From the IMG/VR virus record IMGVR_UViG_3300035034_002581: a stretch of 64,000 nt of DNA. The stretch is one strand, 5' to 3'. The notes under the pieces are model-generated. The model was not told the origin of the DNA, did not search any database, and saw only the letters and a program-made list of their open reading frames with translations. Position numbers and translations under genes: made by a program. The stretch comes from a virus. Positions 10,796 to 33,006 of this stretch are shown here, one piece after another. Every line of letters begins with the position of its first letter. Positions within the stretch are counted from its first letter, which is position 1.

Positions 10796-11200
10796 TCACT
10801 TGATTTGTATAATTTCGATTCCCGCATCTTTTAGTAACTCAATGCCGGACGTATCGACGTATTCTTTCTTGAAGTATACTATGTCTATATTAGCATTGAT
10901 AATTCTCTTTGCACACATTATGCAGGGACTAAGAGTAACATACATCTTCTTCTTCTTCGGGTTGTTGAAGTCGCACTTGATAAGTGCATTCTCTTCTGCA
11001 TGAATAAACCCAGACTTTCCCGTCTCAAAAGAGGCACGTTTGTTACTTCCTCCCTTTTCGTCGCCGTTGTATCCCACAGATAAAACTTGAGTATTATCAA
11101 GTGTTACAATTATAGCGCCCACTTTTGTTTTCTGATCAGATGATCTTCTGCTAATTTGCTCAGCAACTTTCATCCAAACTTCATTCCATTCTGGTCTCAT
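10796..11200 (-). CDS. dCMP deaminase (cytidine/deoxycytidylate deaminase zinc-binding fold)
   Basis: HAEENAL ... SPCIMCAKRI gives the H-[AC]-E ... P-C-x-x-C zinc motifs. The size (134 aa) fits. Confidence 0.75.
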   Translation of the reverse strand: MRPEWNEVWMKVAEQISRRSSDQKTKVGAIIVTLDNTQVLSVGYNGDEKGGSNKRASFETGKSGFIHAEENALIKCDFNNPKKKKMYVTLSPCIMCAKRIINANIDIVYFKKEYVDTSGIELLKDAGIEIIQIK

Positions 11201-12467: not shown

Positions 12468-12498
12468 ATTTTATACTATTTTTGTGACTTTTACAAAT
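12468..12498 (-). promoter_or_regulatory. promoter-like element upstream of the DHH gene
   Basis: The minus strand reads TTGTAA-15 nt-TATAAAAT, followed by AAGGAG and then ATG. The -35 hexamer is weak. Confidence 0.25.
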
Positions 12499-12503
12499 CA
12501 CAG

Positions 12504-13079
12504 TTACCACATGTCTCTTTCATTTGTGTAGCTGTGGCAGTTCCAGCAACGTGGTTCATATAGGTCGGCGCCGCCCACTTGTATCTCTTCTCCTTCTTCT
12601 ACCTTCCTCTGAGTATAAAATGCGTCTGCCTGACACTCTACACAAACAGCTGGACACTTTTCAATTCGTGTTGCCCAGGGCATTATCTTTGCAACTTCAT
12701 CAAATGCTTTACAAGACGCTGACATCTCCAAGGAAGACACAATTATTGTCTTACCAAGTCTAAAAAGACGTATTAGTGTTTCTGCTACATCATCTATCAT
12801 AAATGCTTCGTCAACAGCAATTACATCATAATCAACGTCAGAATCTATCAAGAATCTATAAATATCCTTAGCAGTTTCGACTGTGACTACTTCGACGTCG
12901 TCAAGCGTTAGACCTATGTGCGTCTTTATGTTTGTTTTTGAATAGCGATCATCCATGATAGGCTTAAAAGCTACTGTTCGCTTTTTTTGATACTTGTATC
13001 TATCGATCTGAGCTAAAAGTCGAGTAGTTTTACCACTAAACATCGGACCTGTGAAGAGGATAAATTCTGGATTACGCAT
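12504..13079 (-). CDS. tdk: thymidine kinase
   Basis: FTGPMFSGKTTRLL is the P-loop typical of TK1-type thymidine kinases. A C-terminal CxxC...CxxC zinc ribbon is present (CAVCVEC...CWNCH). Confidence 0.8.
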   Translation of the reverse strand: MRNPEFILFTGPMFSGKTTRLLAQIDRYKYQKKRTVAFKPIMDDRYSKTNIKTHIGLTLDDVEVVTVETAKDIYRFLIDSDVDYDVIAVDEAFMIDDVAETLIRLFRLGKTIIVSSLEMSASCKAFDEVAKIMPWATRIEKCPAVCVECQADAFYTQRKVEEGEEIQVGGADLYEPRCWNCHSYTNERDMW

Positions 13080-14112: not shown

Positions 14113-14135
14113 TTTTATCTCCTACTAGAAGTATT

Positions 14136-15059
14136 TTACCGCACCAGATGTGCAGAGTTTAAGCTAAAACTAAACTTAGCTTCTACAGGAGAACCTAGAT
14201 TGTATTTCTCATGAACTACACTTGCGAGGTAATAAATGAACTCAAGATCCTTGCGAAATGTCTTTGCAACGTTTGAAGATCGCAAGTTCACGTTTACATC
14301 CATAATGTTGTCTCTAAACAGAATATGAATGAGTGAAATGCATGTGTCGTCAGTGTATATAAAACGTCGAGATGTAGAAGTTTGTTTCTCGTTATACTCA
14401 TTCTTACCATTAAGCTCATTTGTCATCTTTGTAGTCATCTTTTCAAGTATACCCTTGAAGTAGTCCCCTTCTACATCGTCATCAAGAATTTCAGGATCAG
14501 CTTCTGGAAAATCAAGATCTTCAAAGAAGGTGAAACTCAATGGAACTTCGCAGTCTTTTGCTGATGTGCTTGGGATGTTTGACACGTATCTTAGTACTTC
14601 ACTTGCAATGTCATCTAAGTCACACTCTTCTTTTGTCTTGTTCCAAGCTACAATGTCATGTGTTGTTTCTTCGACACTTTTCGTATCATTTTCGACGTGA
14701 ATGACATTAGGTAGATTTGATATCCACTCTTGATCTTCGAACAAAGTGTAGAGTCGAGAAAGCGATTCTTCTGTTTGGAAATCATCGCCGCGTTTTTGGA
14801 ATCTAGCCTTGACTGTCTCCCAGGGCGGAAGGACAAAAACGACACGATTATTCAAACATGATAGCTCTGTCCAAAAATTACGTGCATGTTGAGTTAAGTT
14901 CCTACTATACATTTGACCGTAAACTAACATCGATAGCGTTGAACGATCTTGAATGTTCCATCGGAACGATGACTCTCTGTGTATCTGACTGTACAAAGAA
15001 GATTTACCAGAACAATCTGGTCCTTCTAAGATTAATTGACTTGTATGAAATCTGATCAT
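14136..15059 (-). CDS. thymidylate-kinase-like dNMP kinase with ~110-aa C-terminal extension
   Basis: ILEGPDCSGKSSL is the P-loop (compare Tmk IEGLDGAGKST). The DRSTLSMLVYGQ segment matches Tmk DRYxxSxxAYQ. Confidence 0.5.
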   Translation of the reverse strand: MIRFHTSQLILEGPDCSGKSSLYSQIHRESSFRWNIQDRSTLSMLVYGQMYSRNLTQHARNFWTELSCLNNRVVFVLPPWETVKARFQKRGDDFQTEESLSRLYTLFEDQEWISNLPNVIHVENDTKSVEETTHDIVAWNKTKEECDLDDIASEVLRYVSNIPSTSAKDCEVPLSFTFFEDLDFPEADPEILDDDVEGDYFKGILEKMTTKMTNELNGKNEYNEKQTSTSRRFIYTDDTCISLIHILFRDNIMDVNVNLRSSNVAKTFRKDLEFIYYLASVVHEKYNLGSPVEAKFSFSLNSAHLVR

Positions 15060-15106
15060 TTTACATCCTTATGCTACATCATACACACTTTTGATGGAAT
15101 CTTTAA

Positions 15107-15484: not shown

Positions 15485-15683
15485 TTCTGCGAACTATTCT
15501 TAAAATAAGCTCTGCATTTTGTAGAAAAAAGTCCAGGACACGTCCATCTGTAAGCAAACATCTGTACTTTTGATGTTTGTTACCTTTATTCACAGATACC
15601 ACCAGCATAAGGTCATTGCTGACGATGTGTTTCTGATGATCTGGATGTCCCAGAGATACGAGGTCGCCTTTCTTGTACATCAT
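15468..15683 (-). CDS. small KOW/SH3-like protein (GDLV family)
   Basis: MMYKKGDLVSLGHPDHQKHIVSNDLMLVVSV. Confidence 0.35.
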   Translation of the reverse strand: MMYKKGDLVSLGHPDHQKHIVSNDLMLVVSVNKGNKHQKYRCLLTDGRVLDFFLQNAELILRIVRRIDSKE

Positions 15684-15886
15684 TGTGCTTCTTCCTTTAC
15701 GCGACTTAAGAGAGTCACTTTGTACAAATATCTCTTGTATACACTTCCGTCAATCAAGATATCGTAGTAGATCATTCCAGCTTCGTCCTTGTATCGGGCG
15801 GTAATAAGACCGATGACGACTTGGTTCGATGTCACAAAGTAGAACCTTACGATATCGTTTGCTTGAAGGTCAACAGACAATTTCAT
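15680..15886 (-). CDS. small KOW/SH3-like protein (GDLV family)
   Basis: ...NDIVRFYFVTSNQVVIGLITARY. It is a paralog of its neighbours. Confidence 0.3.
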   Translation of the reverse strand: MKLSVDLQANDIVRFYFVTSNQVVIGLITARYKDEAGMIYYDILIDGSVYKRYLYKVTLLSRVKEEAQ

Positions 15887-16707: not shown

Positions 16708-16888
16708 TCAGTAACTGCTGTTGAATTATCTCAGTTTTGAGGTGTTCTCGATAGATCTTCTCATTGTCCATCTGTATTCTTCGATACTTTTGGTACAACA
16801 TTGTAGCAAATCCTGGAATTGAAAACACTAAAATTGCTGAGCTGACAATGCCAGCTACAACGATCAGACCTATCAAGAAATTAGCCAT
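16664..16888 (-). CDS. small membrane protein
   Basis: 74 aa. The N-terminal TM segment is FLIGLIVVAGIVSSAILVF. It overlaps the methyltransferase start. Confidence 0.3.
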   Translation of the reverse strand: MANFLIGLIVVAGIVSSAILVFSIPGFATMLYQKYRRIQMDNEKIYREHLKTEIIQQQLLNEQLYNPSEKKNDN

Positions 16889-16989
16889 CAGTCACCCTTT
16901 GTCACAATGAAAGGCGCCGGCGCCCATAATTGTCTCCTTACTAGACAAGACAATTGTACCACAATTTGATGGTTATTTACAATCGAAGA

Positions 16990-18003
16990 CTACTTTAAAA
17001 TGTGTGTGTGTGATTCTCTAAGTGAATTTCCAGAGACTCTTAATAACACACATTTAGCTTGAAACTCTTCGATACTAATACATCCTGAGTAGCTTAGTGC
17101 ACTTTTAACTCTGGATTCTACTTCTCCCAGGATAGTTTCTACGCTGTCAGTTTTAAATGGGATTCTTGTTGTAATACCTTCAAGAGACGCAGCTTTACCT
17201 CTCCAATCAATTTGCGCATCTTTACTGGCCATACCTCGATAAACCTTCATGAGCTGGCCTTTATACATGTAAGCCTCACCAGGAGTAGATGCTGTCCCAG
17301 CTAACATACTACCCAGCATAACAGCATCAGCACCTGCTGCAAGGGCCTTAGAGATGTCTCCTGCGTTTCTTAGGCCGCCGTCGGCAATCAAAGCTGCCGG
17401 TCTTGTCGAGGTTGCACACTCAAGAATTGAAGACAATGTTGGCATTCCGTGTCCTGTCTGGAGTCGAGTACTACAAATACTTCCACCGCCGATTCCGACT
17501 CGAATACTGTTTGCGCCCCAGTCTGACAAGTCGTCGAAACCTTTCTTCGTGGCTACATTGCCTGCCATTATGTGGATGCCCAATCCGTACTGCTTGCGTA
17601 GTTCATAGAGCGCTTTTTTCATCATTTCTGTGTGTCCATGGGCTACATCAATACAAAACTTGTTAGCACCCTCCTGGATATGTGCATCGACGCGCTCGAT
17701 ATAGTCACCTGATACGCCGATCGCTATGACTTTGTTGTGTGCTTTCTTTGCTATTTCGACCTGATCTTCGATAGAGTTATATCTGTGAATGACGCCGATT
17801 CCGCCGGACCTTGTCATATCATTACACATAACATCTTCAGTTACAGTGTCCATCGGACTTGAAATAATAGGCAGTGAAAGATCAAGACCGCCACAGAATG
17901 AATATAAGCTAATCAAGCTCCTAGATGGGATCTTAGAGTATTGCGGTCGAATGAGAATGTCGTCGAAACAGAGCAACTCCGGTTTTTGTAGGTCAAGTCT
18001 CAT
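16990..18003 (-). CDS. guaC: GMP reductase-like (IMPDH/GuaC family, no CBS domain)
   Basis: 337 aa. FDDILIRPQYS matches the GuaC N-terminus FKDVLIRPKRS. GIGGGSICSTR matches the catalytic-Cys loop GIGPGS(V/I)C(T/I)T. Confidence 0.6.
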   Translation of the reverse strand: MRLDLQKPELLCFDDILIRPQYSKIPSRSLISLYSFCGGLDLSLPIISSPMDTVTEDVMCNDMTRSGGIGVIHRYNSIEDQVEIAKKAHNKVIAIGVSGDYIERVDAHIQEGANKFCIDVAHGHTEMMKKALYELRKQYGLGIHIMAGNVATKKGFDDLSDWGANSIRVGIGGGSICSTRLQTGHGMPTLSSILECATSTRPAALIADGGLRNAGDISKALAAGADAVMLGSMLAGTASTPGEAYMYKGQLMKVYRGMASKDAQIDWRGKAASLEGITTRIPFKTDSVETILGEVESRVKSALSYSGCISIEEFQAKCVLLRVSGNSLRESHTHILK

Positions 18004-19110
18004 TTAAAAAGTACCTCGTTGTGTCCATGACGGACTGTCTAGAAACTCTATGTGATCAATAGGGAACGCTGCATTTTTTCGAATAGCACTTGTGATTGAC
18101 TGCAACATGGCTTCTTCTGAATCATATCGGCGCAACACACCGTTATAAAAGAATGGCCACTCTTCTTTGTGCCCCATAGTGGCGTTTAAATAGCTCAATT
18201 TTACTGCTGTCGAAAATACGTCAAGCTTATTGATGTAGATTTTGTTTGATCCAGTAATATTGATTGCTTTGATAAGTTTGTCAACATTGAGAAAGTTTGT
18301 ATCTCGTGCCCTTCCAGTTGTTACGCCAATCTCTTTACCTGCTACGGCGAGATCTTTTTTAAAACGAGCGTGATTCTCCGGCTCTGGATCGAAACTAGGA
18401 TCGATTCCGACTCTTGTGTCATACATCTTAGCAACACCGTAGACATCACGTATTGAATAGTGTGAGAAGCCTAAAGATAGTGCACCAGCGGGTGTTGTAT
18501 TTGAAGATGTAACATATGGATAGTTTCCGTAGTCTACATCAAGCCAACATCCTTGTGCTCCTTCACATAACACCTTCTTTCCGAGTACTTCATCCCAAAT
18601 CATGTGTGCAGGGAGGTAGTCTTTTGCAAGTTTTCCTGTTCGTCCATATTTGTCCCTATACGCTGGTGCAATACCGTTACCTGTAGTACCCAATCTTTCC
18701 TTGAACTCTCCAGAATCTTCTCTAATGTGATCATTCGTAACGATATGAGCACGAGGAGATACTTTGACAAGTGAACCGTTATGTCCTGCCTTCTCTAATA
18801 GGGAGATCTCTCGCATCAGTTTCTCAACATTAACAACACAACCAGGACCAATCACACTCTTGATGCCGAAGAGTACACCGCAAGGGACAATATGTGTTTT
18901 GTATACCTTTTCTTCTCCATCTTTTCCGGGCACATGAATTGTGTGCCCTGCATTTGAACCTCCGCTCCATCTCGCGACCATGTCATAGTCACCTGTTGAT
19001 GCTAGTCCTGCTGCTATCTTTCCTTTTCCTTCATCGCCCCAAGCTAAACCTGTAACGATGTCAACGATCAAACCCATGTCGTTTTGTCCCTTTGAATTAT
19101 TTCTAAACAA
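18004..19110 (-). CDS. purA: adenylosuccinate synthetase homolog (short, archaeal-type; PurA or PurZ-like)
   Basis: WGDEGKGKI is the P-loop and SGGSNAGHT holds the catalytic His, as in PurA. It is only 368 aa, against ~430 aa for bacterial PurA. The coding sequence directly abuts the guaC-like gene. Confidence 0.7.
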   Translation of the reverse strand: MFRNNSKGQNDMGLIVDIVTGLAWGDEGKGKIAAGLASTGDYDMVARWSGGSNAGHTIHVPGKDGEEKVYKTHIVPCGVLFGIKSVIGPGCVVNVEKLMREISLLEKAGHNGSLVKVSPRAHIVTNDHIREDSGEFKERLGTTGNGIAPAYRDKYGRTGKLAKDYLPAHMIWDEVLGKKVLCEGAQGCWLDVDYGNYPYVTSSNTTPAGALSLGFSHYSIRDVYGVAKMYDTRVGIDPSFDPEPENHARFKKDLAVAGKEIGVTTGRARDTNFLNVDKLIKAINITGSNKIYINKLDVFSTAVKLSYLNATMGHKEEWPFFYNGVLRRYDSEEAMLQSITSAIRKNAAFPIDHIEFLDSPSWTQRGTF

Positions 19111-19522: not shown

Positions 19523-19739
19523 CTAATTCATAGTCCTGAAAAAATCTGGTGTGTATCGTGAGTGTTTCTGAATCAATGACTTTTGTTGTTGTGATGTATG
19601 TAATTTCTGAGCATCTCACATTCATCACGATTCCGAGGCTTCGTGTGGCCCTATGTCGGACTAGATCACCTCGCATGTATCTATACATCAGTCTAGATCC
19701 AGTGGACGAATCTTCCATGCTGTGGTCGATGGACCCCAC
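19491..19739 (-). CDS. small KOW-like protein (GDLV family)
   Basis: MRGDLVRHRATRSLGIVMNV. The start is probably an internal Met. Confidence 0.3.
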   Translation of the reverse strand: MGSIDHSMEDSSTGSRLMYRYMRGDLVRHRATRSLGIVMNVRCSEITYITTTKVIDSETLTIHTRFFQDYELVEGLHETKLP

Positions 19740-22700
19740 TTGTCGTCGCCCTTAGCTTGACACATCCAAACACTGAACCTTGGGATCTCTTCTTTGAGAT
19801 TACCCCAAACCTTGAGCCAAACAAGATTGTTGTCGCCATCTTGTGCTCTGATTCTGTGATACGTCTTGCCGTTCTTGGTCTTTTTAACTTGAACTTCTCG
19901 ACATAGGAACCATGCAACTGCTTCGACGCCACCTGGGATTTCTGTCAACGGAGGAATATCCTTCTCTTCAAGCCTTTCCAAAAACCCTTCTGGGAACAAC
20001 TGTTCATTACTAATGGCACTTCTAAGGTCAGCGTTGAATGTGATCTTCTCGGTTCGAGTCCAATCTTCATCGAACTCGACTGACTTGATTAGATCTGGGA
20101 GAATGTCTGGGACTGCCTTACCGTTCTTGATATCACGCTTAATACCCGCAGCAGACTTACCCTTCTTTCCTTTTCGCAATACGTTCCAATTGTCCATCAA
20201 GAGCGCATGTAGTTGTCGGTGATTTTCAAAAGTACCGTCTTTGAATTCAGCAAGTGAGTTGAACGCTTCGATTTTGCAGAGTGAATCAAATGATCCCTTG
20301 TTCATCTTAGAGTGATACCACTTGCCTTGGTCATCAAACAATAGATCTTCAAGACTCTTGAATGGACGAGATTCTAGGATCTCAGCAGCTGCAGTCTTAC
20401 CAACTCTCTTGATAGAAGAAAGCGGAGGTACGAAGGCATTGATTTCGTATGAGTACTCCCATTCAAATCCAGAGTGATTAATGTCGATCGGAGCAATTTC
20501 ATAGCCGAGACGCTTAAGTTCAACAATTGCCTTTGATAGACCTGTCGGACTGTTGTTCTCAGACTGCAAGATTGTTGCAATCCACTGCTCTGGATGATAA
20601 GTGAAGAGCCACGCGCCGAAGTAAGAGTCAATTGCATATGCAATGGCGTGAGACTTGTTAAATCCATAGACGCTGAAGAATTCGATCTTTTTCCAGAGTT
20701 CTTCTGAGATATGCTCTGGAATGTCATGGAGTTTCTTGGCGCCCTTGACAAACTGGTCTCTAGCAGCAGCACGCTCATCGCCCTTCTTACCCATTGTATC
20801 AAGTGACTTCTTAACAAGAGTCTTACGAAGTTTGTCAGATTCCGCAGGTGAGAATCCAGCTAGCTCTTGTGCAAGTAGCATGAACTGCTCTTGGAAGGAG
20901 ATATATCCGAGGGTCGGACTTAGGATTTTCTCAATAATTGGGTGATCATAAGTAATTGCAACACCTTCTAGCAGCTGTTTTTTTGTTGCAACATAGTCGG
21001 TGTGCACGTTAGCCTGGAGTGGACCGGGTCGGTAGATTGCAGTAATTGCGCCTAGCTCGGTTGCATCTGTTGGCTTGACCTGTCGACAGAATTCACGAGC
21101 ACCTTCAGCAGTAAATTGGAAGAGGCCTGGCGCAAAGTCTTGCTGATGATATGCTGTCTTGAAGACATGCAGATCATCGGGATCGTTTGTTCTGCAATTT
21201 AAGTGCTTGTCAAAGTAGGCTTTTACTTCATCAAACGTCGGCTTGGGATTACCTTCCTTGATTAAGATTCGACGAATACAGTTTCTAACGTCTTCCATGA
21301 GCGTCAACCCAAGGAAGTCAAACTTAATGAATCCGTTGTCTTCAAGGTTACGGAAGTTCATACCTTCTGTCCAAGGTGTTTGTAGTTCACCGCGAACAGA
21401 GATGATCGGCATCGTTCTTTCAAGCTGCTCAGGTGGAGCGATAATGACACCACCAGCGTGACGACCCAGACTCTTGTTCTGCATGAAAAGAGCAGCAATG
21501 TGTTGCTTAACCTCTGGGTACTCATCCATGAATGCACGGTACTTCTTAGAATACTTCATACAATCTGCGTGCTTGAGAACGAACACCGACTTCTCAGTGT
21601 TGGAGTCCTTAGCTTGAGGCATGACCTCTTCCTGTAGGCCACGAGTAAGATCAAAGACCTCAGAAGCAGGAATATCGTAGAATGAAGAAATGTCCTTTAG
21701 TAATGACTTGAGTTTCAAAGTATTGAAGTTAGACACAGGAATGACTGCGTCGTTGCCGTAAAGTTCACGTGCAGCGTTAATCAAGACGTCGCGGTCGCCA
21801 ACATCAGAGTCGATGTCAGGCCAAGAAGTACGGTGTCGACCAAGGAATCGCTCCCAAAGTAAACCGTATTTCAGTGGATCCACCTGTGTAACACCGAGAA
21901 GATAGTTGACAAGTGAACCAGCACCTGATCCTCGACCACATCCAAAGAGCGTTGATTTAGCAGCAAGGTTAAAGACCTGATACATGACCAAGAAATAGTT
22001 TTCAAACCCAAGGTGCTTGATGTCAGACAACTCATAGTGAGCGCGCTTGATATACTCTGCGTTTTTAGCAAAACCTTCCTTGATCAACCCTTCCTTAACG
22101 AGTTTTGCAAGCTGATTGAAGGCTGACTCTTCTTTGGTAGAAAAGTTAGGTAGCTTTGCTTCAGTGTCAATCCATGTGTCAGAGCACATATCCCAGCAAA
22201 TGTCGTGTGTTCGCTCAATTGAGTCACGAACAATTGCTTCGGTGCCTTCATAGAATGGGTACTTGTCTTTATGTGCAAGGTACTCATCCCACATCTGTTG
22301 TGCATTTTTAGGATAGAGTTCACACTTTAGATCTTCTTTCTTCGGAAGACCCTCGTCATCTTTTCGCTTCCAACCAAGGCGTCTATAGAGTTCTCGTGCT
22401 TGCCACAATTCAGGTGCTGGATAGTGAGAGTCAGCAGTGGCCACAAGTGGAATACTAGTCTTCTCAGCAAGCTTGATTAGTGCAGCATTTGTTAGATGCT
22501 GGGCTGGGAGGCTGTTGAACTGCATCTCGAGAAAGAAGTTTTCTTGACCAACAGCGTCGACAAATCGGTCTGTCATGTTTTCGAGGCGATTCATGACATT
22601 GACAGCAGCTTGGCCAGTTAGAAGATCAGGGTGAAGCTCATCGAACTTCTTATCAGGAAACTCCTTGTAGATCAAACCAGAAGCTGCGCCACCGACGCAT

Positions 22701-23254
22701 GCTGTACTTACGATAAGACCTTCGCTATGTTCTTTGAGCATGTCATAGTCAATACGAGGGAAGCGATAGAATCCATGCTTGAAAGACTTCTTGACGAGCC
22801 TGTAAATATTGTGAAGACCTTCTTGATTCTTGGCCAAGACAACTAGGTGATAGTATCGCTGCCAATCTGGCTTTCCGGACGATCTTGTCTCTTCCTCAGA
22901 CTCAATGACGTGTCCTTCCTCTTCCTCATTAGAAGTTTTCGCCTTTGCTGCAGCCTTTTGTGCTTTGTGAGCTTCATAATCTAATCGCCACTGTGTCAGA
23001 GAGGGGACAAAGTAAAACTCTACGCCATACAACTGACGGAACTTCTGACCTTTCTTTCTTCTCTTTTCATACTCTTTCCTTGCGTGAGCATGAGAGTTTG
23101 CATTTCCGTGATTTGTAATCGACCAAGCGTCCATTTCGTTGTTAAGAACGAATTCGACGTGATCTGATGGATATCCTAAACCATCGTATGTAGAGAATCC
23201 ATCGTGAGCGTGTAGACCGACGAATCGGTTAGGTGGTCGAATTAACTTTGACAT
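19688..23254 (-). CDS. dnaE: DNA polymerase III alpha subunit (DnaE-type replicative polymerase with N-terminal PHP domain)
   Basis: ~1190 aa. The N-terminal PHP motif RFVGLHAHDGFSTYDG matches E. coli RFVHLRVHSDYS. Downstream Pol III alpha core motifs follow. The start was moved to the second in-frame ATG (MSKLIRPP) because it is preceded by GCTAGGAGTATAATG, a perfect SD. Confidence 0.85.
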   Translation of the reverse strand: MSKLIRPPNRFVGLHAHDGFSTYDGLGYPSDHVEFVLNNEMDAWSITNHGNANSHAHARKEYEKRRKKGQKFRQLYGVEFYFVPSLTQWRLDYEAHKAQKAAAKAKTSNEEEEGHVIESEEETRSSGKPDWQRYYHLVVLAKNQEGLHNIYRLVKKSFKHGFYRFPRIDYDMLKEHSEGLIVSTACVGGAASGLIYKEFPDKKFDELHPDLLTGQAAVNVMNRLENMTDRFVDAVGQENFFLEMQFNSLPAQHLTNAALIKLAEKTSIPLVATADSHYPAPELWQARELYRRLGWKRKDDEGLPKKEDLKCELYPKNAQQMWDEYLAHKDKYPFYEGTEAIVRDSIERTHDICWDMCSDTWIDTEAKLPNFSTKEESAFNQLAKLVKEGLIKEGFAKNAEYIKRAHYELSDIKHLGFENYFLVMYQVFNLAAKSTLFGCGRGSGAGSLVNYLLGVTQVDPLKYGLLWERFLGRHRTSWPDIDSDVGDRDVLINAARELYGNDAVIPVSNFNTLKLKSLLKDISSFYDIPASEVFDLTRGLQEEVMPQAKDSNTEKSVFVLKHADCMKYSKKYRAFMDEYPEVKQHIAALFMQNKSLGRHAGGVIIAPPEQLERTMPIISVRGELQTPWTEGMNFRNLEDNGFIKFDFLGLTLMEDVRNCIRRILIKEGNPKPTFDEVKAYFDKHLNCRTNDPDDLHVFKTAYHQQDFAPGLFQFTAEGAREFCRQVKPTDATELGAITAIYRPGPLQANVHTDYVATKKQLLEGVAITYDHPIIEKILSPTLGYISFQEQFMLLAQELAGFSPAESDKLRKTLVKKSLDTMGKKGDERAAARDQFVKGAKKLHDIPEHISEELWKKIEFFSVYGFNKSHAIAYAIDSYFGAWLFTYHPEQWIATILQSENNSPTGLSKAIVELKRLGYEIAPIDINHSGFEWEYSYEINAFVPPLSSIKRVGKTAAAEILESRPFKSLEDLLFDDQGKWYHSKMNKGSFDSLCKIEAFNSLAEFKDGTFENHRQLHALLMDNWNVLRKGKKGKSAAGIKRDIKNGKAVPDILPDLIKSVEFDEDWTRTEKITFNADLRSAISNEQLFPEGFLERLEEKDIPPLTEIPGGVEAVAWFLCREVQVKKTKNGKTYHRIRAQDGDNNLVWLKVWGNLKEEIPRFSVWMCQAKGDDKWGPSTTAWKIRPLDLD
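23217..23250. repeat. 34-bp direct repeat copy 1 (covers dnaE codons 2-13)
   Basis: ccgacgaatcggttaggtggtcgaattaactttg is identical to the copy at 23799..23832. Confidence 0.8.
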
Positions 23255-23798
23255 TATACTCCTAGCTGTCATTACTCTAGCAGCTTTTAAGGACGGCCGA
23301 CTAGCTTATTTTTGTTCTTGTATATTGTACCATCAACTAGTACACAATTACACATTTTGTTTCCTCTTTGTAATCGAAAAGTATATACAAAGAAGAATGT
23401 TATTGAAGGCAGGCAGAACCTACGGAGAGGGTTACGACCCCTCTACCACTTTAGATCAACTCCCGTGGACGGCTATCCTCCGTCTTTGTATATCGGGCCA
23501 GCATTTAATGGTCTGCACGTTTAAAGTTGTCGCCCCCTTCTTCAGCTTTCATCATCTTACGTTATTAGATTACTTGCTTAGTGAAGCTGCCTGCTATCCT
23601 GATTGGGTGTTTCTCCTCAATAACAAAAATGATAATTTACTCTACTCATGTGACAGATTTGCTTTAGCTTTCTCAGCTCTCACTGCATCATTGAGAACTG
23701 CCAGCCTTCCTTCGCGACTTTTGTATGAATAAATTGCATCGTCTAACATCTTCTGTTCGACATGCGTTTTAAGGCCCTTACCTTCATTTGTTACCCAG

Positions 23799-25065: not shown

Positions 25066-26148
25066 TCAATAAAACTTGGTCAAGTCGATATTGAGTTCAT
25101 CAGCAGCTTCTAGATACTTAAGCGGATTGTAGTGTGATCCGCCACAAATTTTAGAGAGTATTGTCTCTACAACATCTTCAATACCTGATTCAAGATTAAC
25201 CGTTGGCGACCATCCAGAGGTCTTTCTGAAGCTTTTTGATGACAACCTATGGTTTCCAAGGTAGTCAGTTTTTGGATTCCATCTGACTATTTCTGACGGT
25301 ACTTTAAGCTGATCAATTATTTTGATAAATGGCGGCCAGTCTTTAAATGATACTGTGTGTGATCTCATACTGGCTGCTAATACTTGATCAACTGTGTCAA
25401 TAATCTCACCAGTAACTCTAGGATCTTCAGCGGCGACAATGAAATCTTGACCCCACAGATTTTGTTCAGCTGCCATTAACACAGCAGTACAATAATCCTT
25501 GACATGAAGATAGTCTTTGTACTTGGTTGGATCGAGAAACATATCGATTTCTTCTCTTCCTATCATTGCTCCGTAAATAGACTTGGCAATTAGAGAGTTC
25601 ATGTCGCCTTCGCCGCCATATGCAAAGAGAGGCCTGATGATGTTTGTTTTGCCTTTCGATTCTCTTACGATCATGTCACCTGTTTGTTTTAGCTGACCGT
25701 AGTAAGTTGTAGGCTTTACCGTGCTTTTCTCTGTGATGAGTGTGTGTTGGTAATTTGGAGTGTCATAGATTACTGTCGTTCCCATGTAGCTTACTAAGAT
25801 TCCTTCTGCTTCGCATGCTCTAACAATGTTGTAAGTTCCGTTCACGTTTGTAAGAGTTGCCTCAGCAGCAGACAGTGCAACGACGTCTGTACCTACAACT
25901 GCAGCATTGTGTATAACAAGATCAACCTCGAAATGTGTAAGTGCTTTTCTCCATTCCACGATTGTATTCTTGTGTACGCAAGGCTCCATAAACATAGAGG
26001 GCTGATGTGGTTCGCCTTTGACCCGCCAGATAAGATGTTTAGCAGCTTCTTCAGTACACAAAGAAACGAACTCATGGCCTCGTTTTTTGATTTCTTTAAT
26101 TAGTCCTTGAGCGATGAAACCTTTTTCACCAGTGATTGCAATTTTCAT
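25066..26148 (-). CDS. NAD(P)-dependent epimerase/dehydratase (SDR family)
   Basis: MKIAITGEKGFIAQGL is a Rossmann motif. YGQLK is the YxxxK motif. The length is 360 aa. Confidence 0.6.
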   Translation of the reverse strand: MKIAITGEKGFIAQGLIKEIKKRGHEFVSLCTEEAAKHLIWRVKGEPHQPSMFMEPCVHKNTIVEWRKALTHFEVDLVIHNAAVVGTDVVALSAAEATLTNVNGTYNIVRACEAEGILVSYMGTTVIYDTPNYQHTLITEKSTVKPTTYYGQLKQTGDMIVRESKGKTNIIRPLFAYGGEGDMNSLIAKSIYGAMIGREEIDMFLDPTKYKDYLHVKDYCTAVLMAAEQNLWGQDFIVAAEDPRVTGEIIDTVDQVLAASMRSHTVSFKDWPPFIKIIDQLKVPSEIVRWNPKTDYLGNHRLSSKSFRKTSGWSPTVNLESGIEDVVETILSKICGGSHYNPLKYLEAADELNIDLTKFY

Positions 26149-26318: not shown

Positions 26319-26393
26319 TTATCTTTCCTCTAAACAAAGCAGGCTATCTCTAACTATTTGTCAAAGATAGCCCTTTTCATGTATGATCAAAGA

Positions 26394-26837
26394 TTACTCA
26401 ATGTTGCCTTCATACATCTCAACAGCAAGTGATCCATCTGCTAAAGAGCGCTTGATATAGGCATCAAGATCTTCAAGTGATGTACAGACTGTGACACCAG
26501 ATGCCGACAACATAAGGTTAAACTTAGCGCCTTCAGGTAAACCTGCACAGAAGTAAACGATTGGTCGATCTAGGCAATGGAAATACCCTGCCTCGAAGAT
26601 TGAACCCATGTCCTTGTTTCGAGTGTTGCAGATCATCCAGTCTGAATCTTGCATGCCCTTGATGTTGCCACTGAAGATCTTGTCTTGCAGCGAAAGGGAT
26701 GCATCAGCAGGTGCAACAGCTTCATCACGTGGCGAGAAGTAATTCAACCCATTGTCGTCAAGAACTTTCTTGATTGCCTCAAGCTCTTCGAGCCACTCTG
26801 GACTAAACCAACCGCTTGCTATGTAACACTTCTTCAT
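26394..26837 (-). CDS. nucleoside 2-deoxyribosyltransferase / dNMP N-glycosidase (Rcl/DNPH1)-family protein
   Basis: MKKCYIASGWFSPE corresponds to the family N-terminus (YxAGPxF). DMGSIFEAGYF matches the catalytic D-x-G-[ST]-x-F-E-x-G-Y motif. Confidence 0.6.
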   Translation of the reverse strand: MKKCYIASGWFSPEWLEELEAIKKVLDDNGLNYFSPRDEAVAPADASLSLQDKIFSGNIKGMQDSDWMICNTRNKDMGSIFEAGYFHCLDRPIVYFCAGLPEGAKFNLMLSASGVTVCTSLEDLDAYIKRSLADGSLAVEMYEGNIE

Positions 26838-26862: not shown

Positions 26863-27846
26863 TCATTCTACCCACCCAACGTCAGTTTTCCATGCAGAAT
26901 ATTCTTCTCGAATGTCTTTCACTTCCTTGTCATAACCTTCCATTAGTTGGTCGAATCTAAAGTTCTCGGGCTTACCAAGTTCTGGGTCTGTTCCGTTAAC
27001 TTCATTTCTGTAGCAGTTGTAGATGAAGTCTTCTGGGTGCCAGTCAAACTTATCGGAGTCGGCATCGGGCCAGTACAGATTCGTAGCCTTTCCAGTACGA
27101 GCTGTTGCAATGTAGTGGCGAGAAGCTGCATGCGGATTGATGCATGATGTAATCTCTGGGAACAACTTAGCGACAGCAATAAACATCTGGTATGCCATCA
27201 CATTGTCTGTTGTAGGCTGAATCTGCTTATCAAAACGCTGACGAAGGAAGTTGAGCATATCCTTTAGGTTGCATCGGGCGTAGTAGTGTGTCTCAATAGC
27301 TCTAGGAAGGATTGTCCTTGCATCCATGATTGAAATCTTACGAGAATCAATCATATCACAGTACAACTCCTTTGCATCTTCAACGTGCTTCTTCCAACGC
27401 TCGTAGAGTTCTGGACTGTTCTGGACAGGACCTGGAACTAGCGCATTGCTATGTGACTGCCAACGATCTCCAGTACACTGAGCGCTGAATGAGAACGTTC
27501 TGTGTCTGATGAGATGGGTGACTGTCTGTAGATCGATGCCTTCAATGCGGAAGGTAAAGTCCAAAGTCTCCATAACAGTCGGAAGTGCTTTGTAATTGAG
27601 AGCGAGTTCGAGTGCTTCATGTCCCTTCCATGCTGGGACATCGTCCGGGTTGTGCATTCCTGGTGCGTCTTCCCATGTAGCATTGATAAACTGATAGACC
27701 ATTCGCCTGACACGCTCAGGATCAGGATAGTCGAGCAAAACTACATTTAAAGAGTCAAGATCGTTCTTGAACTCAGTTGTTGGCTTTTCGTCAAAGCGAA
27801 TCGCCATGGGAAATTCTACGGGCTTTAATTTTTTGTCTTGTGGCAT
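26863..27846 (-). CDS. divergent ThyX-like (flavin-dependent thymidylate synthase family) paralog
   Basis: FTFRIEGIDLQTVTHLIRHRTFSFSAQCTGDRW matches the ThyX core (FxFxI...sRa...Ql.RHRxxSfsqxSxRY). A Cys replaces the signature Ser and TGDRW replaces SQRY. It is 327 aa against 229 aa for the canonical ThyX at 32317. Confidence 0.5.
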   Translation of the reverse strand: MPQDKKLKPVEFPMAIRFDEKPTTEFKNDLDSLNVVLLDYPDPERVRRMVYQFINATWEDAPGMHNPDDVPAWKGHEALELALNYKALPTVMETLDFTFRIEGIDLQTVTHLIRHRTFSFSAQCTGDRWQSHSNALVPGPVQNSPELYERWKKHVEDAKELYCDMIDSRKISIMDARTILPRAIETHYYARCNLKDMLNFLRQRFDKQIQPTTDNVMAYQMFIAVAKLFPEITSCINPHAASRHYIATARTGKATNLYWPDADSDKFDWHPEDFIYNCYRNEVNGTDPELGKPENFRFDQLMEGYDKEVKDIREEYSAWKTDVGWVE

Positions 27847-27899
27847 CCTTTATTCCTCACTAAATATTACAACTTTTGACGTAAATGTTCAAACTATTT

Positions 27900-28070
27900 C
27901 TAGACATCATTCCAGTAGCTATCTGGCTCAGATGACGCTTGCTTAATTACCCTTAGCACCTTCGACCATTCGAAGAATAAGTAGTGTTCACAATTGTCAG
28001 CACCATGAAGATGCTTCTCGGATTGCCACACATTTATGGATTCTAGAGAGTCAATAATATTTTTGGTCAT
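27900..28070 (-). CDS. small hypothetical ORF (56 aa)
   Basis: Manual translation gives MTKNIIDSLESINVWQSEKHLHGADNCEHYLFFEWSKVLRVIKQASSEPDSYWNDV. It lies in an otherwise ORF-poor ~600-bp region. Confidence 0.2.
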   Translation of the reverse strand: MTKNIIDSLESINVWQSEKHLHGADNCEHYLFFEWSKVLRVIKQASSEPDSYWNDV

Positions 28071-28457
28071 TAATCGCTCAAAGCTTTAAGTTGATATGAG
28101 ATGATCTCTGGCTTGCCCTTTAGTTTAAATCGGAACCCTGTGCTCTTTACAATGACAATATCATAAAAGTCAGCTGAGTCTAGTTGGTCTTGGACGAGAC
28201 TGCTATAATCACTGCTAGTGTCTACAAATGAACCTAGGAGTTCACTGCATCAACGCCATTATCGTCTGTCCATGTTGAAATAGCAAGAAATCTCTGTGAA
28301 TTAGACTCAACGAGCTTGATCATTTCTTTATGACGTCCGCTTAGAATTTTGTCAGTCAAGTAGCCGTTTTTATACAAGGCCCTGACAAGAGGTGATGTAA
28401 ATTCTAAGACGAAGTCAATTGTTTTTTATATCTTTTTCTTTGTCGCTTACACATAGT

Positions 28458-29378
28458 TTAGTCCTTCTTTGTGAGTCTTTTAACAAAATTGTACAACCCA
28501 TCCGCTGTATCGTACATTGTCACATTTTCAACATTTTCTAGATCAGCATTAACTGATGTTCTGGGTGATAGTGTATGTACTCCGTGCTTTGCGTATTCTG
28601 TTGCATGCTTTGGTGAATCATCAATAGCACAAACAACCTTTTCGCTCTTGTAGTAATCAGTTCTTGCTAGCCACAAATATTTCTCAGGTGAGAAACTAAT
28701 TCGATGACATTTGATACCACTCTTTTCAAGCCAGGCGTAAGTGTCGTATTTGCATACAAGGAGATCGGCTGGTCGCGCTGTCAATAGATGGATCCAGTAT
28801 CCTTCGTCGTAGAGTTTGTTTATCGTTTCTACGATGCTAATGTTTGTTCTCATTGATTTGAGTCGTCTAGCCTCAATGAACTTCATGTACATTTCTTCTG
28901 TGATTGAGTAGTAAGCAGTTGAATCTTCATCAGGAACGAAGTCAGTATTTGCCTTAACCCATCGTGTGCATTCGTCTTTAAAGGGCGTCAAAACGTCATC
29001 AACATCAACGATGATAACGGGCTGCCCTTCCCACTTGACCTGCTCTTTATTAAAGCGCGTGTTTAGATGCAGATCACGTACACTGAAGGCGTCTTCAAAG
29101 TCATCGTGAGTAATCCCCCACGTGTTTAAGATAGCTAGAAGATACCTGAAGGCGTCGACAGATTCGTGTAAGATTTTGCTAAGCTCTGGACTTTCATCTT
29201 TTGCACGGTGGTGACGATAATTGACGCCATCTAAGATATCGCCAACTTCCTTTTGTAAAGAAGCAGAGAACTGCAACGTAAGTTTCTCTCTATCTTCTTG
29301 AGTTAGATTCTCGTGATCAATAAAGTTCTCGGAAAATCGCTTTTGCTTTAGTAGCATTTCTTTAAAAGTATCTTTCAT
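28458..29378 (-). CDS. MazG-like NTP pyrophosphohydrolase domain fused to HAD-superfamily phosphatase (5'-nucleotidase-like)
   Basis: The N-terminal ~110 aa parallel the standalone MazG-like ORF at 29422 (EVGDILDGV...ILHESVDAFRYLLAIL versus EEVFEALNHL...FLEEWVDAMNYFFSVL). The C-terminal half has PVIIVDVDDVLTP, HAD motif I (DxDx[TV]). Confidence 0.5.
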   Translation of the reverse strand: MKDTFKEMLLKQKRFSENFIDHENLTQEDREKLTLQFSASLQKEVGDILDGVNYRHHRAKDESPELSKILHESVDAFRYLLAILNTWGITHDDFEDAFSVRDLHLNTRFNKEQVKWEGQPVIIVDVDDVLTPFKDECTRWVKANTDFVPDEDSTAYYSITEEMYMKFIEARRLKSMRTNISIVETINKLYDEGYWIHLLTARPADLLVCKYDTYAWLEKSGIKCHRISFSPEKYLWLARTDYYKSEKVVCAIDDSPKHATEYAKHGVHTLSPRTSVNADLENVENVTMYDTADGLYNFVKRLTKKD

Positions 29379-29421: not shown

Positions 29422-29838
29422 TTAATAGTCACTTCTAAGTCGCTCATGGATAACTCGATCCTTTTCTACATAGGACTCATATATTTCATGAGGTGTGAAT
29501 CCTGCAAGAATAAGCACAGAGAAGAAGTAATTCATAGCATCTACCCATTCTTCTAGAAACTTGTCACGATCAAAGTCAGGCATTTCTGTCTTGCGATGAG
29601 GTTTCCAGTTCTTTAGATGATTAAGTGCTTCAAAGACCTCTTCTACGCCACGTAGAGAGACGTCTCTTAAGTTCCTCTGTGACTCTTTTGACCTTAAGTC
29701 CAAAGGCCATTCAGACTGTGCTCCGGGTCGATTCCTACTTAAAGCATGCATAAACTCTTCACGAAGTCTAAACATCTCTTCAAACCTGTCAGGGACAGGA
29801 GGCACCGGCATTGGCGCATCTTCATCAAAGCGATCCAT
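29422..29838 (-). CDS. MazG-like all-alpha NTP pyrophosphohydrolase
   Basis: RGVEEVFEALNHL matches ExxExxEA. DKFLEEWVDAMNYF matches the EExxD(x)L second MazG motif. Confidence 0.5.
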   Translation of the reverse strand: MDRFDEDAPMPVPPVPDRFEEMFRLREEFMHALSRNRPGAQSEWPLDLRSKESQRNLRDVSLRGVEEVFEALNHLKNWKPHRKTEMPDFDRDKFLEEWVDAMNYFFSVLILAGFTPHEIYESYVEKDRVIHERLRSDY

Positions 29839-30080
29839 TATTCACTCTCGTTGTCTTCTGATAGCATCTTTGTCTGGTGGTCTTCGACTTCTTGCATCAT
29901 AGAGTTAATTTGCTTTTCAAAAAGCTCCCTATAATCTGCAGTAAGAGCAAGCTTACCATCTTCTGTCGGTTCAACTTCGATCATTCGAATATGATCAATG
30001 ATGTCTGTTCCCGACAAGATCGCGAGTTGCAATGTGTCTCTAAGTTGCCCAATTAGTTCGTCTGCGAAATGATACTTCAT
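29838..30080 (-). CDS. hypothetical protein
   Basis: 80-aa ORF. Its start overlaps the MazG-like stop in an ATGA coupling. Confidence 0.3.
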   Translation of the reverse strand: MKYHFADELIGQLRDTLQLAILSGTDIIDHIRMIEVEPTEDGKLALTADYRELFEKQINSMMQEVEDHQTKMLSEDNESE

Positions 30081-31223: not shown

Positions 31224-31587
31224 CTACAGCGTCTTTTTTGATAAGGTGTGAAACAATATCGACAACTACATCAACTTCAAATATTTCATCGACCCTATCA
31301 GCTAAAGGCTTAACTCTATCAGCTAAAGGCTTAACTCTTTCACGTACATCATTCTTTAGTGTCTCCGCAAAGTACGCACGATTAAATTCCTTTGAGTTGA
31401 TAGGCTCCTTGATATCGTGAACGATTCGGAACAGCTCATTGTGAAACTTATTAGATGGGTATATCTTGATGCTGCTCAACCTTTCTCTTAGTGTGTCTCT
31501 ACTAATATCTCTTGCAACGTACTGGTCGACGAGTTCCATTAGTGCATTAATTACTTCGTTATCTACTTTTTTACTCACTGTCTTCAT
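31207..31587 (-). CDS. hypothetical protein carrying an in-frame perfect 21-bp tandem duplication
   Basis: 126 aa. RVKPLADRVKPLADRV is encoded by 2 x ctatcagctaaaggcttaact at ~31295..31336. Confidence 0.35.
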   Translation of the reverse strand: MKTVSKKVDNEVINALMELVDQYVARDISRDTLRERLSSIKIYPSNKFHNELFRIVHDIKEPINSKEFNRAYFAETLKNDVRERVKPLADRVKPLADRVDEIFEVDVVVDIVSHLIKKDAVDAAVL

Positions 31588-31837
31588 CCATTAGCATTAC
31601 TGCCATTGCAGCGTAGTTGTGTAAGTCTATCAGCGTATCACGAAGGCTTTCGTCTTCAACAAGCGAGACACCATTTTTTGTGATAGCAGACATTCTACGA
31701 ATCTTATCACCCATCCTAACCAAGACACCGACAGGACCAAAGTCGGAAAATGCATCTCCGTAGTCCTTGTTCTTTCTTGAAAAGAGTGCAAATGCCTCGT
31801 CTTGGACAGCTCTTAGCTGCTTCTCTCTATCGTTCAT
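31571..31837 (-). CDS. hypothetical protein (possible small all-alpha NTP-PPase-like)
   Basis: 88 aa. EAFALFSRKNKDYGDAFSDFGPVGVLVRMGDKIRR. The similarity is weak. Confidence 0.3.
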   Translation of the reverse strand: MNDREKQLRAVQDEAFALFSRKNKDYGDAFSDFGPVGVLVRMGDKIRRMSAITKNGVSLVEDESLRDTLIDLHNYAAMAVMLMDEDSE

Positions 31838-32316: not shown

Positions 32317-33006
32317 TTATGTCCTATTTGCAAATGCCGCGACGGATACTGGCCACAATGTCAATGCAATTGTGTTTAGTGCCTCAGCAACTTTCTGAAT
32401 TTCCCACTGGGCACCTTCATGGGTTCTCAATCTAATAAAATGCATCAAGTTATGCAAATTTACTGTACCATAATATTCTGTATAAAGATTTTGAGGTAAT
32501 ACTCCTCTCGCTTGTTCGCGACAGACTCCTGCGTCAAGCAATTTTTCAAAAAGTGCAAGACTGTGTATATGATGCACGAGGACTGCTTCTGACGCTTTTG
32601 TTTTTATGTTATCGAGTGAAACAATGTCAGGGTCGATCAATTCATTTTCGTTCGATGCCTGTCTGTTAGATTTATGCTGTGTTCTAAACTCTTGTGGTTC
32701 ATAGAACCTCATGTTAATGTCAGTGTATCTTCTACTAATCTCGTTGTATGCCCATGTCCTATGACGATGATGCTGTGATCTAACGTAAAGTGGCACTGTA
32801 AATCTAAATGTTGCTGTGCAGTGCTCGAATGGTGACGTATGATTGTGCTTGGCAAGATAGTTGATAAGCTTTTCATCTTTACTGTCAACTTCTCCTTTTT
32901 GTCCACCAAAAGAAACTCGAGCAGCGTTAACAACGCTTAAGTCAGTGCCCATGTGACTAATAAGTTCTACTTCACCAATTCCGTCTTCGTATAGTTCAAT
33001 CTTCAT
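32317..33006 (-). CDS. thyX: flavin-dependent thymidylate synthase ThyX
   Basis: Canonical RHRTWAYNEISRRY gives RHR-x7-S. The N-terminus has VVNAARVSFG. The length is 229 aa. Confidence 0.85.
   Translation of the reverse strand: MKIELYEDGIGEVELISHMGTDLSVVNAARVSFGGQKGEVDSKDEKLINYLAKHNHTSPFEHCTATFRFTVPLYVRSQHHRHRTWAYNEISRRYTDINMRFYEPQEFRTQHKSNRQASNENELIDPDIVSLDNIKTKASEAVLVHHIHSLALFEKLLDAGVCREQARGVLPQNLYTEYYGTVNLHNLMHFIRLRTHEGAQWEIQKVAEALNTIALTLWPVSVAAFANRT

Follow-up and report, generated by a model that had tools for sequence, protein, structure and literature searches.

To our knowledge, every known phage pathway that makes a modified pyrimidine ahead of DNA synthesis (5-hydroxymethylcytosine, 5-methylcytosine, 5-hydroxymethyluracil or 5-hydroxycytosine) starts from an enzyme of the ThyA fold, and we know the ThyX fold only from thymidylate synthesis and from one UMP methylase of an antibiotic pathway. 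Here we examine a divergent, long-form ThyX gene carried by a virus (IMG/VR record IMGVR_UViG_3300035034_002581). The 64,000 nucleotides that were analysed, referred to as the window, have a GC content of about 41%, are part of a 179.6-kb ENA metagenome contig and also encode gp32-like and T4-baseplate genes. The gene lies at 26863..27846 on the minus strand. By profile and fold its product is a member of the ThyX/Thy1 superfamily, yet its substrate-recognition loop has been rebuilt, and on the sequence evidence we lean, with limited confidence, toward a non-thymidylate enzyme that modifies C5 of deoxycytidine monophosphate (dCMP) or deoxyuridine monophosphate (dUMP).

In canonical ThyX, Ser88 and Tyr91 (Thermotoga maritima numbering) are described as ‘strictly conserved’ acids in the expulsion of hydroxyl from the flavin carbinolamine, with Tyr91 tuned by Arg90 and dUMP activated by Arg174; the S88A, R90A and Y91A substitutions slow the T. 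maritima step at least 100-fold (PMC8316439). The hydrogen bond that joins His53 to Tyr91 serves as a gate for the reduced flavin, and in Y91F the rate falls about 1000-fold (PMC11940539). Substrate contacts are known from PolB of Streptomyces cacaoi, a C5-methylase of UMP and dUMP in the polyoxin pathway that arose by neofunctionalisation of ThyX. In its complex with 5-Br-dUMP (numbering equal to T. maritima plus 8), the counterparts of Arg74, Gln75, Ser88, Gly89, Arg90 and Arg147 contact the phosphate, those of Glu86 and Arg78 the ribose O3’, that of Arg174 the pyrimidine O2 and that of Arg90 the O4 (PMC5003785). PolB is the only characterised neofunctionalised ThyX; it keeps an S-A-R-Y peptide and a 5-methyl product and owes its specificity to tyrosines of Loop 1 and Loop 2 (Tyr124 and Tyr126), whereas the window protein reads C-T-G-D.

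Phages that modify pyrimidines by way of a thymidylate synthase homolog offer a second comparison. T4 (td and gene 42), XP12 (dCMP methylase) and RB69 and DLP3 (5-hydroxy-dCMP synthase) resemble the present case in having two thymidylate synthase paralogs per phage, of which one supplies dTMP and the other a modified pyrimidine, and T4-type systems also include an all-alpha deoxynucleoside triphosphate (dNTP) pyrophosphatase, a deoxynucleoside monophosphate (dNMP) kinase, a dCMP deaminase and sugar-modifying genes (PMC13326640, PMC8670742). T4 gp42, the XP12 enzyme and RB69 gp48, however, have the ThyA fold with a catalytic Cys146 and the N177D switch; the long form has the unrelated ThyX fold, and in the window it is a gene fusion at 14136-15059 that carries those features. 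The XP12 enzyme was considered as a ThyX-type dCMP methylase and set aside, as it is a ThyA homolog.

The phages with 5-hydroxymethyluracil or uracil in their DNA (SP8, phi-e, SPO1 and PBS2) encode a dTTPase/dUTPase, a dTMP 5’-nucleotidase, a dCMP deaminase, a dUMP hydroxymethylase and a hydroxymethyl-dUMP kinase. The genes around the long form predict the same activities (a pyrophosphatase, a 5’-nucleotidase and a thymidylate synthase homolog, with or without deaminase and kinase), but the hydroxymethylases of those phages are ThyA-fold enzymes and their classical scheme has no nucleoside 2-deoxyribosyltransferase (Ndt) family partner. The window also holds a canonical ThyX and a thymidine kinase, two genes not expected where thymine is fully replaced in that way.

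The nearest likeness in gene context is Bacillus phage SP-15, whose DNA contains 5-(4’,5’-dihydroxypentyl)uracil and which has two Thy1-family genes, gp9 and gp130; its second, divergent Thy1 protein has been proposed as a putative hydroxymethyl-dUMP synthase (PMC5977210). SP-15 gp130 is flanked by a short-chain dehydrogenase/reductase (SDR) gene and an Ndt-family gene in a genome with an HD_1 5’-nucleotidase, much as the long form is. It lacks the RHR motif that the window protein has (R114-H115-R116) and was rejected as a homolog (hhalign probability 0.4%, E 0.14), leaving it an analogue by context only. Our literature search found no paper on the present clade, no characterised divergent phage ThyX and no ThyX-fold enzyme making a modified DNA precursor.

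The sequence-only reading had described the gene as a second ThyX-family paralog of 327 aa with Cys at the signature Ser, and in both respects, as in the coordinates, it was correct; this gene and the canonical copy both lie on the minus strand. The reading frame starts with ATG. Pfam Thy1 (PF02511) matches the product at 83.8 bits (gathering score 24.8, E=1.7e-23), over profile positions 49-191 only, and the protein, modelled as a monomer, has the ThyX fold. Compared to canonical ThyX (T. maritima TM0449, Mycobacterium tuberculosis ThyX and PBCV-1 A674R) it is longer by about 85 N-terminal and about 95 C-terminal residues, and these extensions carry invariant motifs of their own. The T. maritima reference sequence used for mapping agreed with the PDB entry in all but one C-terminal residue. 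Cys124 (codon 27475-27477, minus strand) aligns with Ser88 without gaps, in a rebuilt loop that reads RHRTFSFSAQCTGDRW (27460..27507, minus). Gly126 and Asp127 take the places of Arg90 and Tyr91, and Leu88 that of His53, so that the signature Ser, Arg90/Tyr91 and His53, all features of canonical ThyX, are missing. His111 corresponds to Gln75 and Ala122 to Glu86. The nucleotide-contacting arginines are kept (Arg78, Arg80 and Arg147 for ribose and phosphate, Arg174 for O2), with Arg114, His115 and Arg116 at Arg78, His79 and Arg80, Arg177 at Arg147 and Arg204 at Arg174, and Glu93 stands at Glu58.

To assess how general these changes are, we aligned 114 long-form relatives, with identities down to about 25%, to T. 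maritima ThyX and counted the columns. The Ser88 column holds Cys in 82 sequences, Ser in 14, Gly in 9 and Thr in 5, and the Arg90 column holds Gly in 82, Ala in 13 and Arg in 10. At Tyr91 a carboxylate is found in 95 of the 114 (Asp 87, Glu 8); at His53 there is Leu in 98 and His in none. Retention is as marked elsewhere: R78 is present in all 114, R174 in 112, R147 in 111, R80 in 109 and E58 in 106, while the His79 column drifts (H50, Y13, Q13, A12 and others). Cys, Gly and Asp of the loop are invariant across 30 relatives of 50-85% identity, which, together with their predominance in the larger set, argues against chance or a sequencing artefact.

The sequence-only reading had singled out the Ser-to-Cys change. 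That change is real, but it is only part of what happened to the loop; Cys is found in 72% of the wider clade, a lower share than that of the Asp which replaces Tyr91. Two subclades share C-[TS]-G-D. Clade A, which includes the window protein and Geobacillus phage GR1, reads TH(L/I)IR(H/Y)R..SFSA(Q/D)C(T/S)GD(R/K), and clade B reads HQLVRxRIGVTFSQQC(T/S)GDxD; Ser-to-Cys is therefore one element of an ancient, wholesale rebuilding of the loop and no isolated substitution. Loss of His53 and Tyr91 does not suffice as proof of neofunctionalisation, since many short phage ThyX also lack both, the two positions co-varying as a pair. The PB1-like and Carpasina-like phage ThyX (RTR..QQETSRA) have neither Cys nor Tyr91/His53 yet keep Arg90. 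The distinctive feature is thus the combination of S88C, R90G and Y91D. A third type of long-form ThyX has the loop ‘QHGGRDNDW’, in which Ser88 is replaced by Gly and Tyr91 by Asp while Arg90 is kept (loci L186, L202, L205, L209, L215, L216, L222, L235, L243, L245, L251 and L252); MazG and HAD/HD partners accompany it in 5-6 of 7 groups and Ndt in none. HNH and intein insertions were seen in two of the proteins collected (P0150 and P0237).

Set against the PolB contacts, these replacements fall in a telling place. The sole side chain that reads the uracil-specific O4 is the one deleted in the clade, and a near-invariant carboxylate adjoins it. At Ser88, which lies beside both C6 and the phosphate, there is now a thiol, in the place closest to C6. 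The Arg174 equivalent binds O2, which is common to uracil and cytosine, so Arg204 of the window protein is expected to read O2; for the same reason we rejected the kept Arg174 as proof of a uracil substrate, the O4 reader being Arg90. A switch from uracil to cytosine would call for just such a loss of the O4 reader together with a new carboxylate and a new Cys, and the gain of Asp parallels the N177D change of ThyA-fold dCMP enzymes (PMC13326640, PMC8670742). The same loop changes could instead redirect the exocyclic-methylene intermediate on dUMP. The position of His53, also the folate-stacking residue, is that of Leu88 in the window protein.

The relatives are numerous. A word-indexed search returned more than 778, nearly all 322-334 aa long, on metagenomic contigs of up to 298 kb, and an exhaustive search of representatives gave 120 clusters at E<1e-10. 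Among cultured phages, only GR1 has a full-length close homolog (UDY80709.1, 50% identity). No cultured representative of clade B was found, the best matches being PB1-like at about 29% identity. A pattern scan specific to clade A recovered 2 contigs of metagenome-assembled genomes among 185,579 species-representative cellular genomes. The clade appears to be large, old and essentially viral, with canonical ThyX being common in cells.

Genes in the neighbourhood of the long form were compared within 10 kb on either side in 80 viral loci and GR1 (81 in all), dereplicated at 85% identity to 28 lineages. The tightest partner is the Ndt-family gene (26394..26837, minus; Pfam PF05014, 6.8e-14; phrog_7995, 3.3e-27), which begins 25 nt 3’ of the long form in the window and is found directly downstream on the same strand in 26 of the 28 lineages. 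The nearest solved relatives of its product are true nucleoside deoxyribosyltransferases (6evs, 4.5e-7) and include no dNMP hydrolases. A terminator-like 14-bp hairpin with a T-run directly follows its stop codon (26341..26373, minus); this single consensus match, in a count at chance level, is suggestive only of a two-gene unit that closes there. On the other side of the long form, the 612-nt stretch at 27847-28457 that separates it from the MazG-HAD gene contains no called gene; a 56-aa reading frame at 27900-28070 is not conserved, promoter-like matches are no more numerous than expected by chance, and no Rfam family, riboswitches included, was matched in the whole window.

Upstream of that stretch lie a MazG-like, all-alpha NTP pyrophosphatase fused to a HAD-type phosphatase/5’-nucleotidase (28458..29378, minus; weak Pfam dUTPase_2, phrog_173 and phrog_415/1238) and a stand-alone MazG-like pyrophosphatase (29422..29838, minus; phrog_12184, 2e-17, weak Pfam dUTPase_2). 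The short MazG-like gene is present in 25 of the 28 lineages. The MazG-HAD fusion occurs in 13, and a YfbR-like HD-domain 5’-deoxynucleotidase stands directly upstream of the long form in 12 (e.g., at 9463-10011 of locus L058); the two are mutually exclusive, no lineage having both and 25 of 28 having one or the other. This is a clean non-orthologous displacement, and two unrelated folds with the same activity in the same place argue that the module needs a dNMP 5’-nucleotidase. The replicative polymerase, a DNA polymerase III alpha of PHP/DnaE type (19688..23272, minus; PF02811/PF07733), is also close, being within 10 kb in 24 of 28 lineages. Other partners are less constant: a Tmk-like gene and an SDR gene in 11 lineages each, Fpg in 10, dCMP deaminase in 7 and canonical ThyX in 6. 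The enzymes of nucleotide metabolism named in the sequence-only reading (dCMP deaminase, thymidine kinase, Tmk-like, Ndt-family, MazG-like, MazG-HAD and HD hydrolase) are all encoded in the window. Its dCMP deaminase, thymidine kinase and HD gene, however, do not belong to the core, which consists of Ndt, MazG and a HAD or HD nucleotidase. The long form differs from canonical ThyX, then, in the Cys, Gly, Asp and Leu at Ser88, Arg90, Tyr91 and His53, in its restriction to viruses and in these fixed partners.

Clade B allows the link between partners and loop genotype to be checked. A scan with a clade B profile gave 82 loci of mixed loop types, dereplicated to 63 groups. Ndt accompanied the long form in 6 of 16 CxGD groups vs 1 of 47 groups that retain Arg90 (p=7e-4), and MazG in 12 of 16 vs 10 of 47 (p=2e-4). 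With clade A added, the association with Ndt is 32 of 44 CxGD groups vs 1 of 47 (p=2e-13). At one clade B locus on a phage backbone with a Pol A-type polymerase (L171), the Ndt and ThyX genes overlap by 4 nt. On phage backbones that are unrelated to each other, then, Ndt and MazG go with the loop genotype.

A canonical, accessory ThyX is present in the window, as the sequence-only reading had stated (32317..33006, minus; 229 aa; Pfam Thy1 over the full profile, E=2.9e-49). Its motif reads RHRTWAYNEISRRY, giving the local signature RHR-x7-S-R-R-Y; the contrast drawn earlier, TGDRW in place of SQRY, holds for the CTGD of the long form but not for the local canonical copy, which has S-R-R-Y. The canonical copies found within 10 kb of the long form are of two unrelated types, RHR..SRRY (type I) in the window’s group and two others and KHR..SARY (type II) in three groups. 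Types I and II are 21-25% identical, whereas the long forms of the same genome pairs are 50-58% identical. This disparity implies at least two acquisitions by phages that already had the long form, with both genes remaining intact. Two kept ThyX genes are hard to reconcile with both doing one job.

These observations fit a scheme in which a flavin-binding ThyX-fold enzyme would still stack a pyrimidine deoxynucleoside monophosphate on FAD but, because of the rebuilt loop, would no longer carry out ordinary dUMP-to-dTMP synthesis. A folate-derived one-carbon unit (or, less likely, oxygen) would pass by way of the flavin to C5 of the nucleotide, with substrate, outcome or both changed. Our first choice is dCMP, on which Asp127 would read N4/N3 and Cys124 would help at C6 to yield 5-methyl- or 5-hydroxymethyl-dCMP. 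The second choice is dUMP, where capture of the exocyclic methylene by water would give 5-hydroxymethyl-dUMP. We place the dCMP-directed version slightly ahead. The partners may then edit the nucleotide pool: the MazG-like pyrophosphatase would convert dNTP to dNMP, the HAD or HD 5’-nucleotidase dNMP to deoxynucleoside, and the Ndt-family transferase would exchange or remove the base, so that the competing canonical nucleotide is cleared or recycled beside the phage’s DNA polymerase III alpha. Weak further support comes from a 551-aa metagenomic protein (P0136), in which a weak match to family-2 glycosyltransferases (PF00535; E 1.6e-4, narrowly short of the cut-off) is joined to a Cys-type long form and which may be a Rosetta-stone hint of glycosylation or an artefact of gene calling, from a glycosyltransferase and a nitroreductase near the GR1 homolog, and from the recurrence of the SDR gene. 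Among the window ORFs of unassigned function, none has a Pfam or PHROG match to a glycosyltransferase.

The most serious alternative is that the long form, for all its divergence, does work as a flavin-dependent thymidylate synthase, the lineage’s ‘td’, in which Cys124, Asp127 and Arg128 stand in for Ser88, Tyr91 and Arg90. We regard this as a real possibility, though not the expected outcome. The MazG-like protein, nucleotidase, Ndt, dCMP deaminase and thymidine kinase would then serve dC/dU-to-dT supply and pool balancing, and any modified base would be made by enzymes of the ThyA fold.

Candidates for such enzymes are at hand. The window gene that the sequence-only reading took for a Tmk-like kinase (14136..15059, minus) does have a dNK/Tmk-type kinase domain, but as a whole it is a fusion to a reduced ThyA-fold domain of about 160 aa with a dCMP-type signature. 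This second part draws no Pfam call, and the fusion family, with at least 387 members, appears to be unannotated. Across 119 members there is no variation in the Walker lysine, in the catalytic Cys, in the two Arg pairs that bind phosphate or in the Asp that stands at Escherichia coli N177, and the D169 position is Asn in 85, the window protein included. N177D is a mark of cytosine substrates and D169N is reported as diagnostic of flavin-dependent 5-hydroxy-dCMP synthases (PMC13326640); the best structural match of the domain among ThyA-fold proteins is a flavin-dependent dCMP monooxygenase (9iqc). The fusion shares at least 23 contigs with the long form. Another locus has a full-length ThyA homolog directly downstream of the long form (L054, IMG/VR UViG_3300024999_000126, 10982-11944) with N177D and a kept D169, the signature of T4 gp42-like dCMP hydroxymethylases. 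From these signatures, modification of cytosine through ThyA-fold enzymes is very likely in these phages, and the fusion is a second and better-signposted candidate for the maker of a modified base in the window, where it would be predicted to form a nucleotide of 5-hydroxy-dCMP type and then phosphorylate it.

Such a route lends real weight to a T4-like scheme with the long form as thymidylate synthase, and it is among the points that count against a non-thymidylate function. A dCMP-directed ThyX would be partly redundant with these enzymes, an overlap that affects at least 11 of the 28 lineages, whereas a thymidylate synthase would pair with them on the model of td and gp42 in T4. GR1, the one cultured phage with a complete genome, encodes neither a further ThyX nor a ThyA, so that in this phage the long form could simply be the thymidylate synthase. 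In 6 lineages without a canonical ThyX there is a dCMP deaminase close by, and MazG, a YfbR-like nucleotidase, thymidine kinase and thymidylate synthase together also resemble a dC-to-dT salvage route. The kept arginines include those that bind and activate the nucleotide in canonical ThyX. Asp could serve as the acid in place of Tyr91, Arg or Lys at 128, two residues on, could replace Arg90, the absence of Tyr91 and His53 is common in phage ThyX that presumably function, and long-form relatives with a canonical-like S-x-R loop are known (P0208, P0254 and the PB1-like phage ThyX). The S88C variant of T. maritima ThyX is still active. Finally, Cys gives way to Ser, Gly, Thr, Ala or Asn in 28% of the wider clade, which excludes it as a universally essential nucleophile and weakens the case for a family-wide catalytic one.

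A hint in favour of a link to modified bases comes from an independent experiment. In MetaGPA, where metavirome DNA enriched for modified cytosines was analysed, Thy1 is the 9th most associated Pfam (49 selected vs 275 unselected contigs, corrected p 1.7e-36; PMC8670742, supplementary table 2). Thymidylat_synt, dCMP deaminase and MazG-like PRA-PH are on the same list, and the main text makes no mention of Thy1 (PMC8670742). The enrichment may reflect direct involvement or mere co-occurrence.

Several findings nevertheless sit poorly with a thymidylate synthase. Arg90, which both reads O4 and binds phosphate, is lost, and its replacement by Ala is damaging in T. maritima. A canonical ThyX from two unrelated lineages was added with both genes kept, which would be redundant, and the link of Ndt and MazG to the CxGD loop, as opposed to other phage ThyX, is left without explanation. 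A working thymidylate synthase variant would also be expected to spread in cells, and the clade is essentially missing from cellular genomes. Modified dUMP as the product would avoid the redundancy with ThyA-fold enzymes, but both pyrimidines would then be altered in these phages. The proposal of the sequence-only reading, a neofunctionalised ThyX tied to a non-canonical base, is therefore supported in part: residues for O4 reading and methylene transfer are replaced while the arginines are kept, the clade is essentially virus-only, the partners are linked to genotype, canonical ThyX was gained at least twice and Thy1 is enriched on metavirome contigs with modified cytosine, but the window holds a rival ThyA-fold source.

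It is improbable that one-carbon transfer was lost in favour of another flavin-based role, such as an NAD(P)H:flavin reductase/oxidase feeding a flavin-dependent ThyA-fold dCMP 5-hydroxylase, a direct O2-dependent C5 hydroxylase or a non-catalytic nucleotide-binding subunit: the constant absence of the folate-stacking and gating His53, the loss of the methylene-transfer residues, the D169N/N177D signature and 9iqc match of the companion domain and the flavin reductase directly upstream in GR1 would fit, but GR1 and many lineages have the long form without the ThyA-fold fusion, the four nucleotide-contacting arginines are strongly constrained where a pure flavin reductase would not need them, and the tight coupling is to Ndt rather than to the ThyA-fold gene.

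In GR1 (OK896991.1, 23.9-30.2 kb and 40-42 kb; loci L001/L083) the homolog has a nitroreductase-type flavin reductase upstream and a small P-loop kinase downstream, and its flanks also hold a glycosyltransferase, an HD protein and a thioredoxin. The GR1 genome also contains a second Ndt gene, an amidoligase and a gamma-glutamylcyclotransferase. A further metagenomic locus (L172, ENA ERZ21869602 ctg79689l, 10001-18460) has a Cys-type long form (P0163) followed by UDG-family, two radical-SAM, Fer4/DHO_dh-like and PRK-family kinase genes, a run that is possibly a base-hypermodification cluster.

Other genes of the window complete the picture. Next to the short MazG-like gene is a conserved 80-aa ORF (29838..30080, minus) without a family match that has homologs in 52 of 81 loci and 14 of 28 lineages, and a DUF1599 gene lies at 31571-31837. 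The SDR gene encodes a nucleotide-sugar epimerase/dehydratase-like protein (25066..26148, minus; Pfam Epimerase, 1.9e-25; phrog_540). The accessory dCMP deaminase (10796..11200, minus; Pfam PF00383, 2.7e-21) and thymidine kinase (12504..13079, minus; Pfam TK, 2e-43; homologs in 9 of 81 loci) are more distant, as is the HD hydrolase (43235-43867), 15 kb from the long form. The last adjoins a 408-aa Pol A-family fragment (together 43235-45056, minus) in a phage that also has DNA polymerase III alpha, and the pair recalls, in arrangement only, DatZ/DpoZ of Z-genome phages. A shortened PurA-like gene (18004-19110, minus; 368 aa; phrog_1211 ‘PurZ-type’, 2.7e-60) adjoins an IMPDH/GMP-reductase-like gene (together 16990-19110, minus). 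A PurZ/Z-genome reading of it is unlikely, with cellular PurA matching at 8e-49 and solved PurZ at 8e-18 and 3e-8; a module for converting G to A purines is conceivable, as is an unusual PurZ, and the PurA-like gene is not linked to the ThyX-like module (0 of 81 loci). Two genes of one block are unusual as phage cargo: one encodes a pterin-4a-carbinolamine dehydratase homolog (4306-4725, minus), the other a protein whose C-terminal domain is that of an Fe/Mn superoxide dismutase (8836-9585, minus).

Overall, the idea of neofunctionalisation is strengthened, in part, and sharpened to a testable hypothesis with a clear sequence signature. We tentatively propose that in the C-[TS]-G-D proteins the ThyX fold serves, for the first time, to produce some DNA precursor besides thymidylate, by flavin-dependent modification of deoxycytidylate or deoxyuridylate at C5 with a new Cys/Asp loop and within a hitherto unrecognised pool-editing pathway of an obligatory Ndt partner, dNTP pyrophosphatase and 5’-nucleotidase, and, jointly and as tentatively, that the phages of the clade, a widespread marine, gut and soil lineage that includes GR1, carry non-canonical pyrimidines in their DNA. 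If so, a second scaffold with flavin-relay chemistry would join the enzymology of DNA modification, the enrichment of Thy1 on cytosine-modified metavirome DNA would be explained, and hundreds of uncultured phages could be picked out, by RxR-x7-C-[TS]-G-D beside a gene of the Ndt family, as ones whose genomes may be modified. Modified genomes bear on restriction and CRISPR evasion, sequencing bias and enzyme tools. Should the long form prove to be a thymidylate synthase after all, then ThyX works without the ‘strictly conserved’ Ser88, Arg90 and Tyr91, which would bear on mechanism and inhibitor design. For either outcome, Geobacillus phage GR1, being in culture, is the natural choice of system in which to test the function of the long form.

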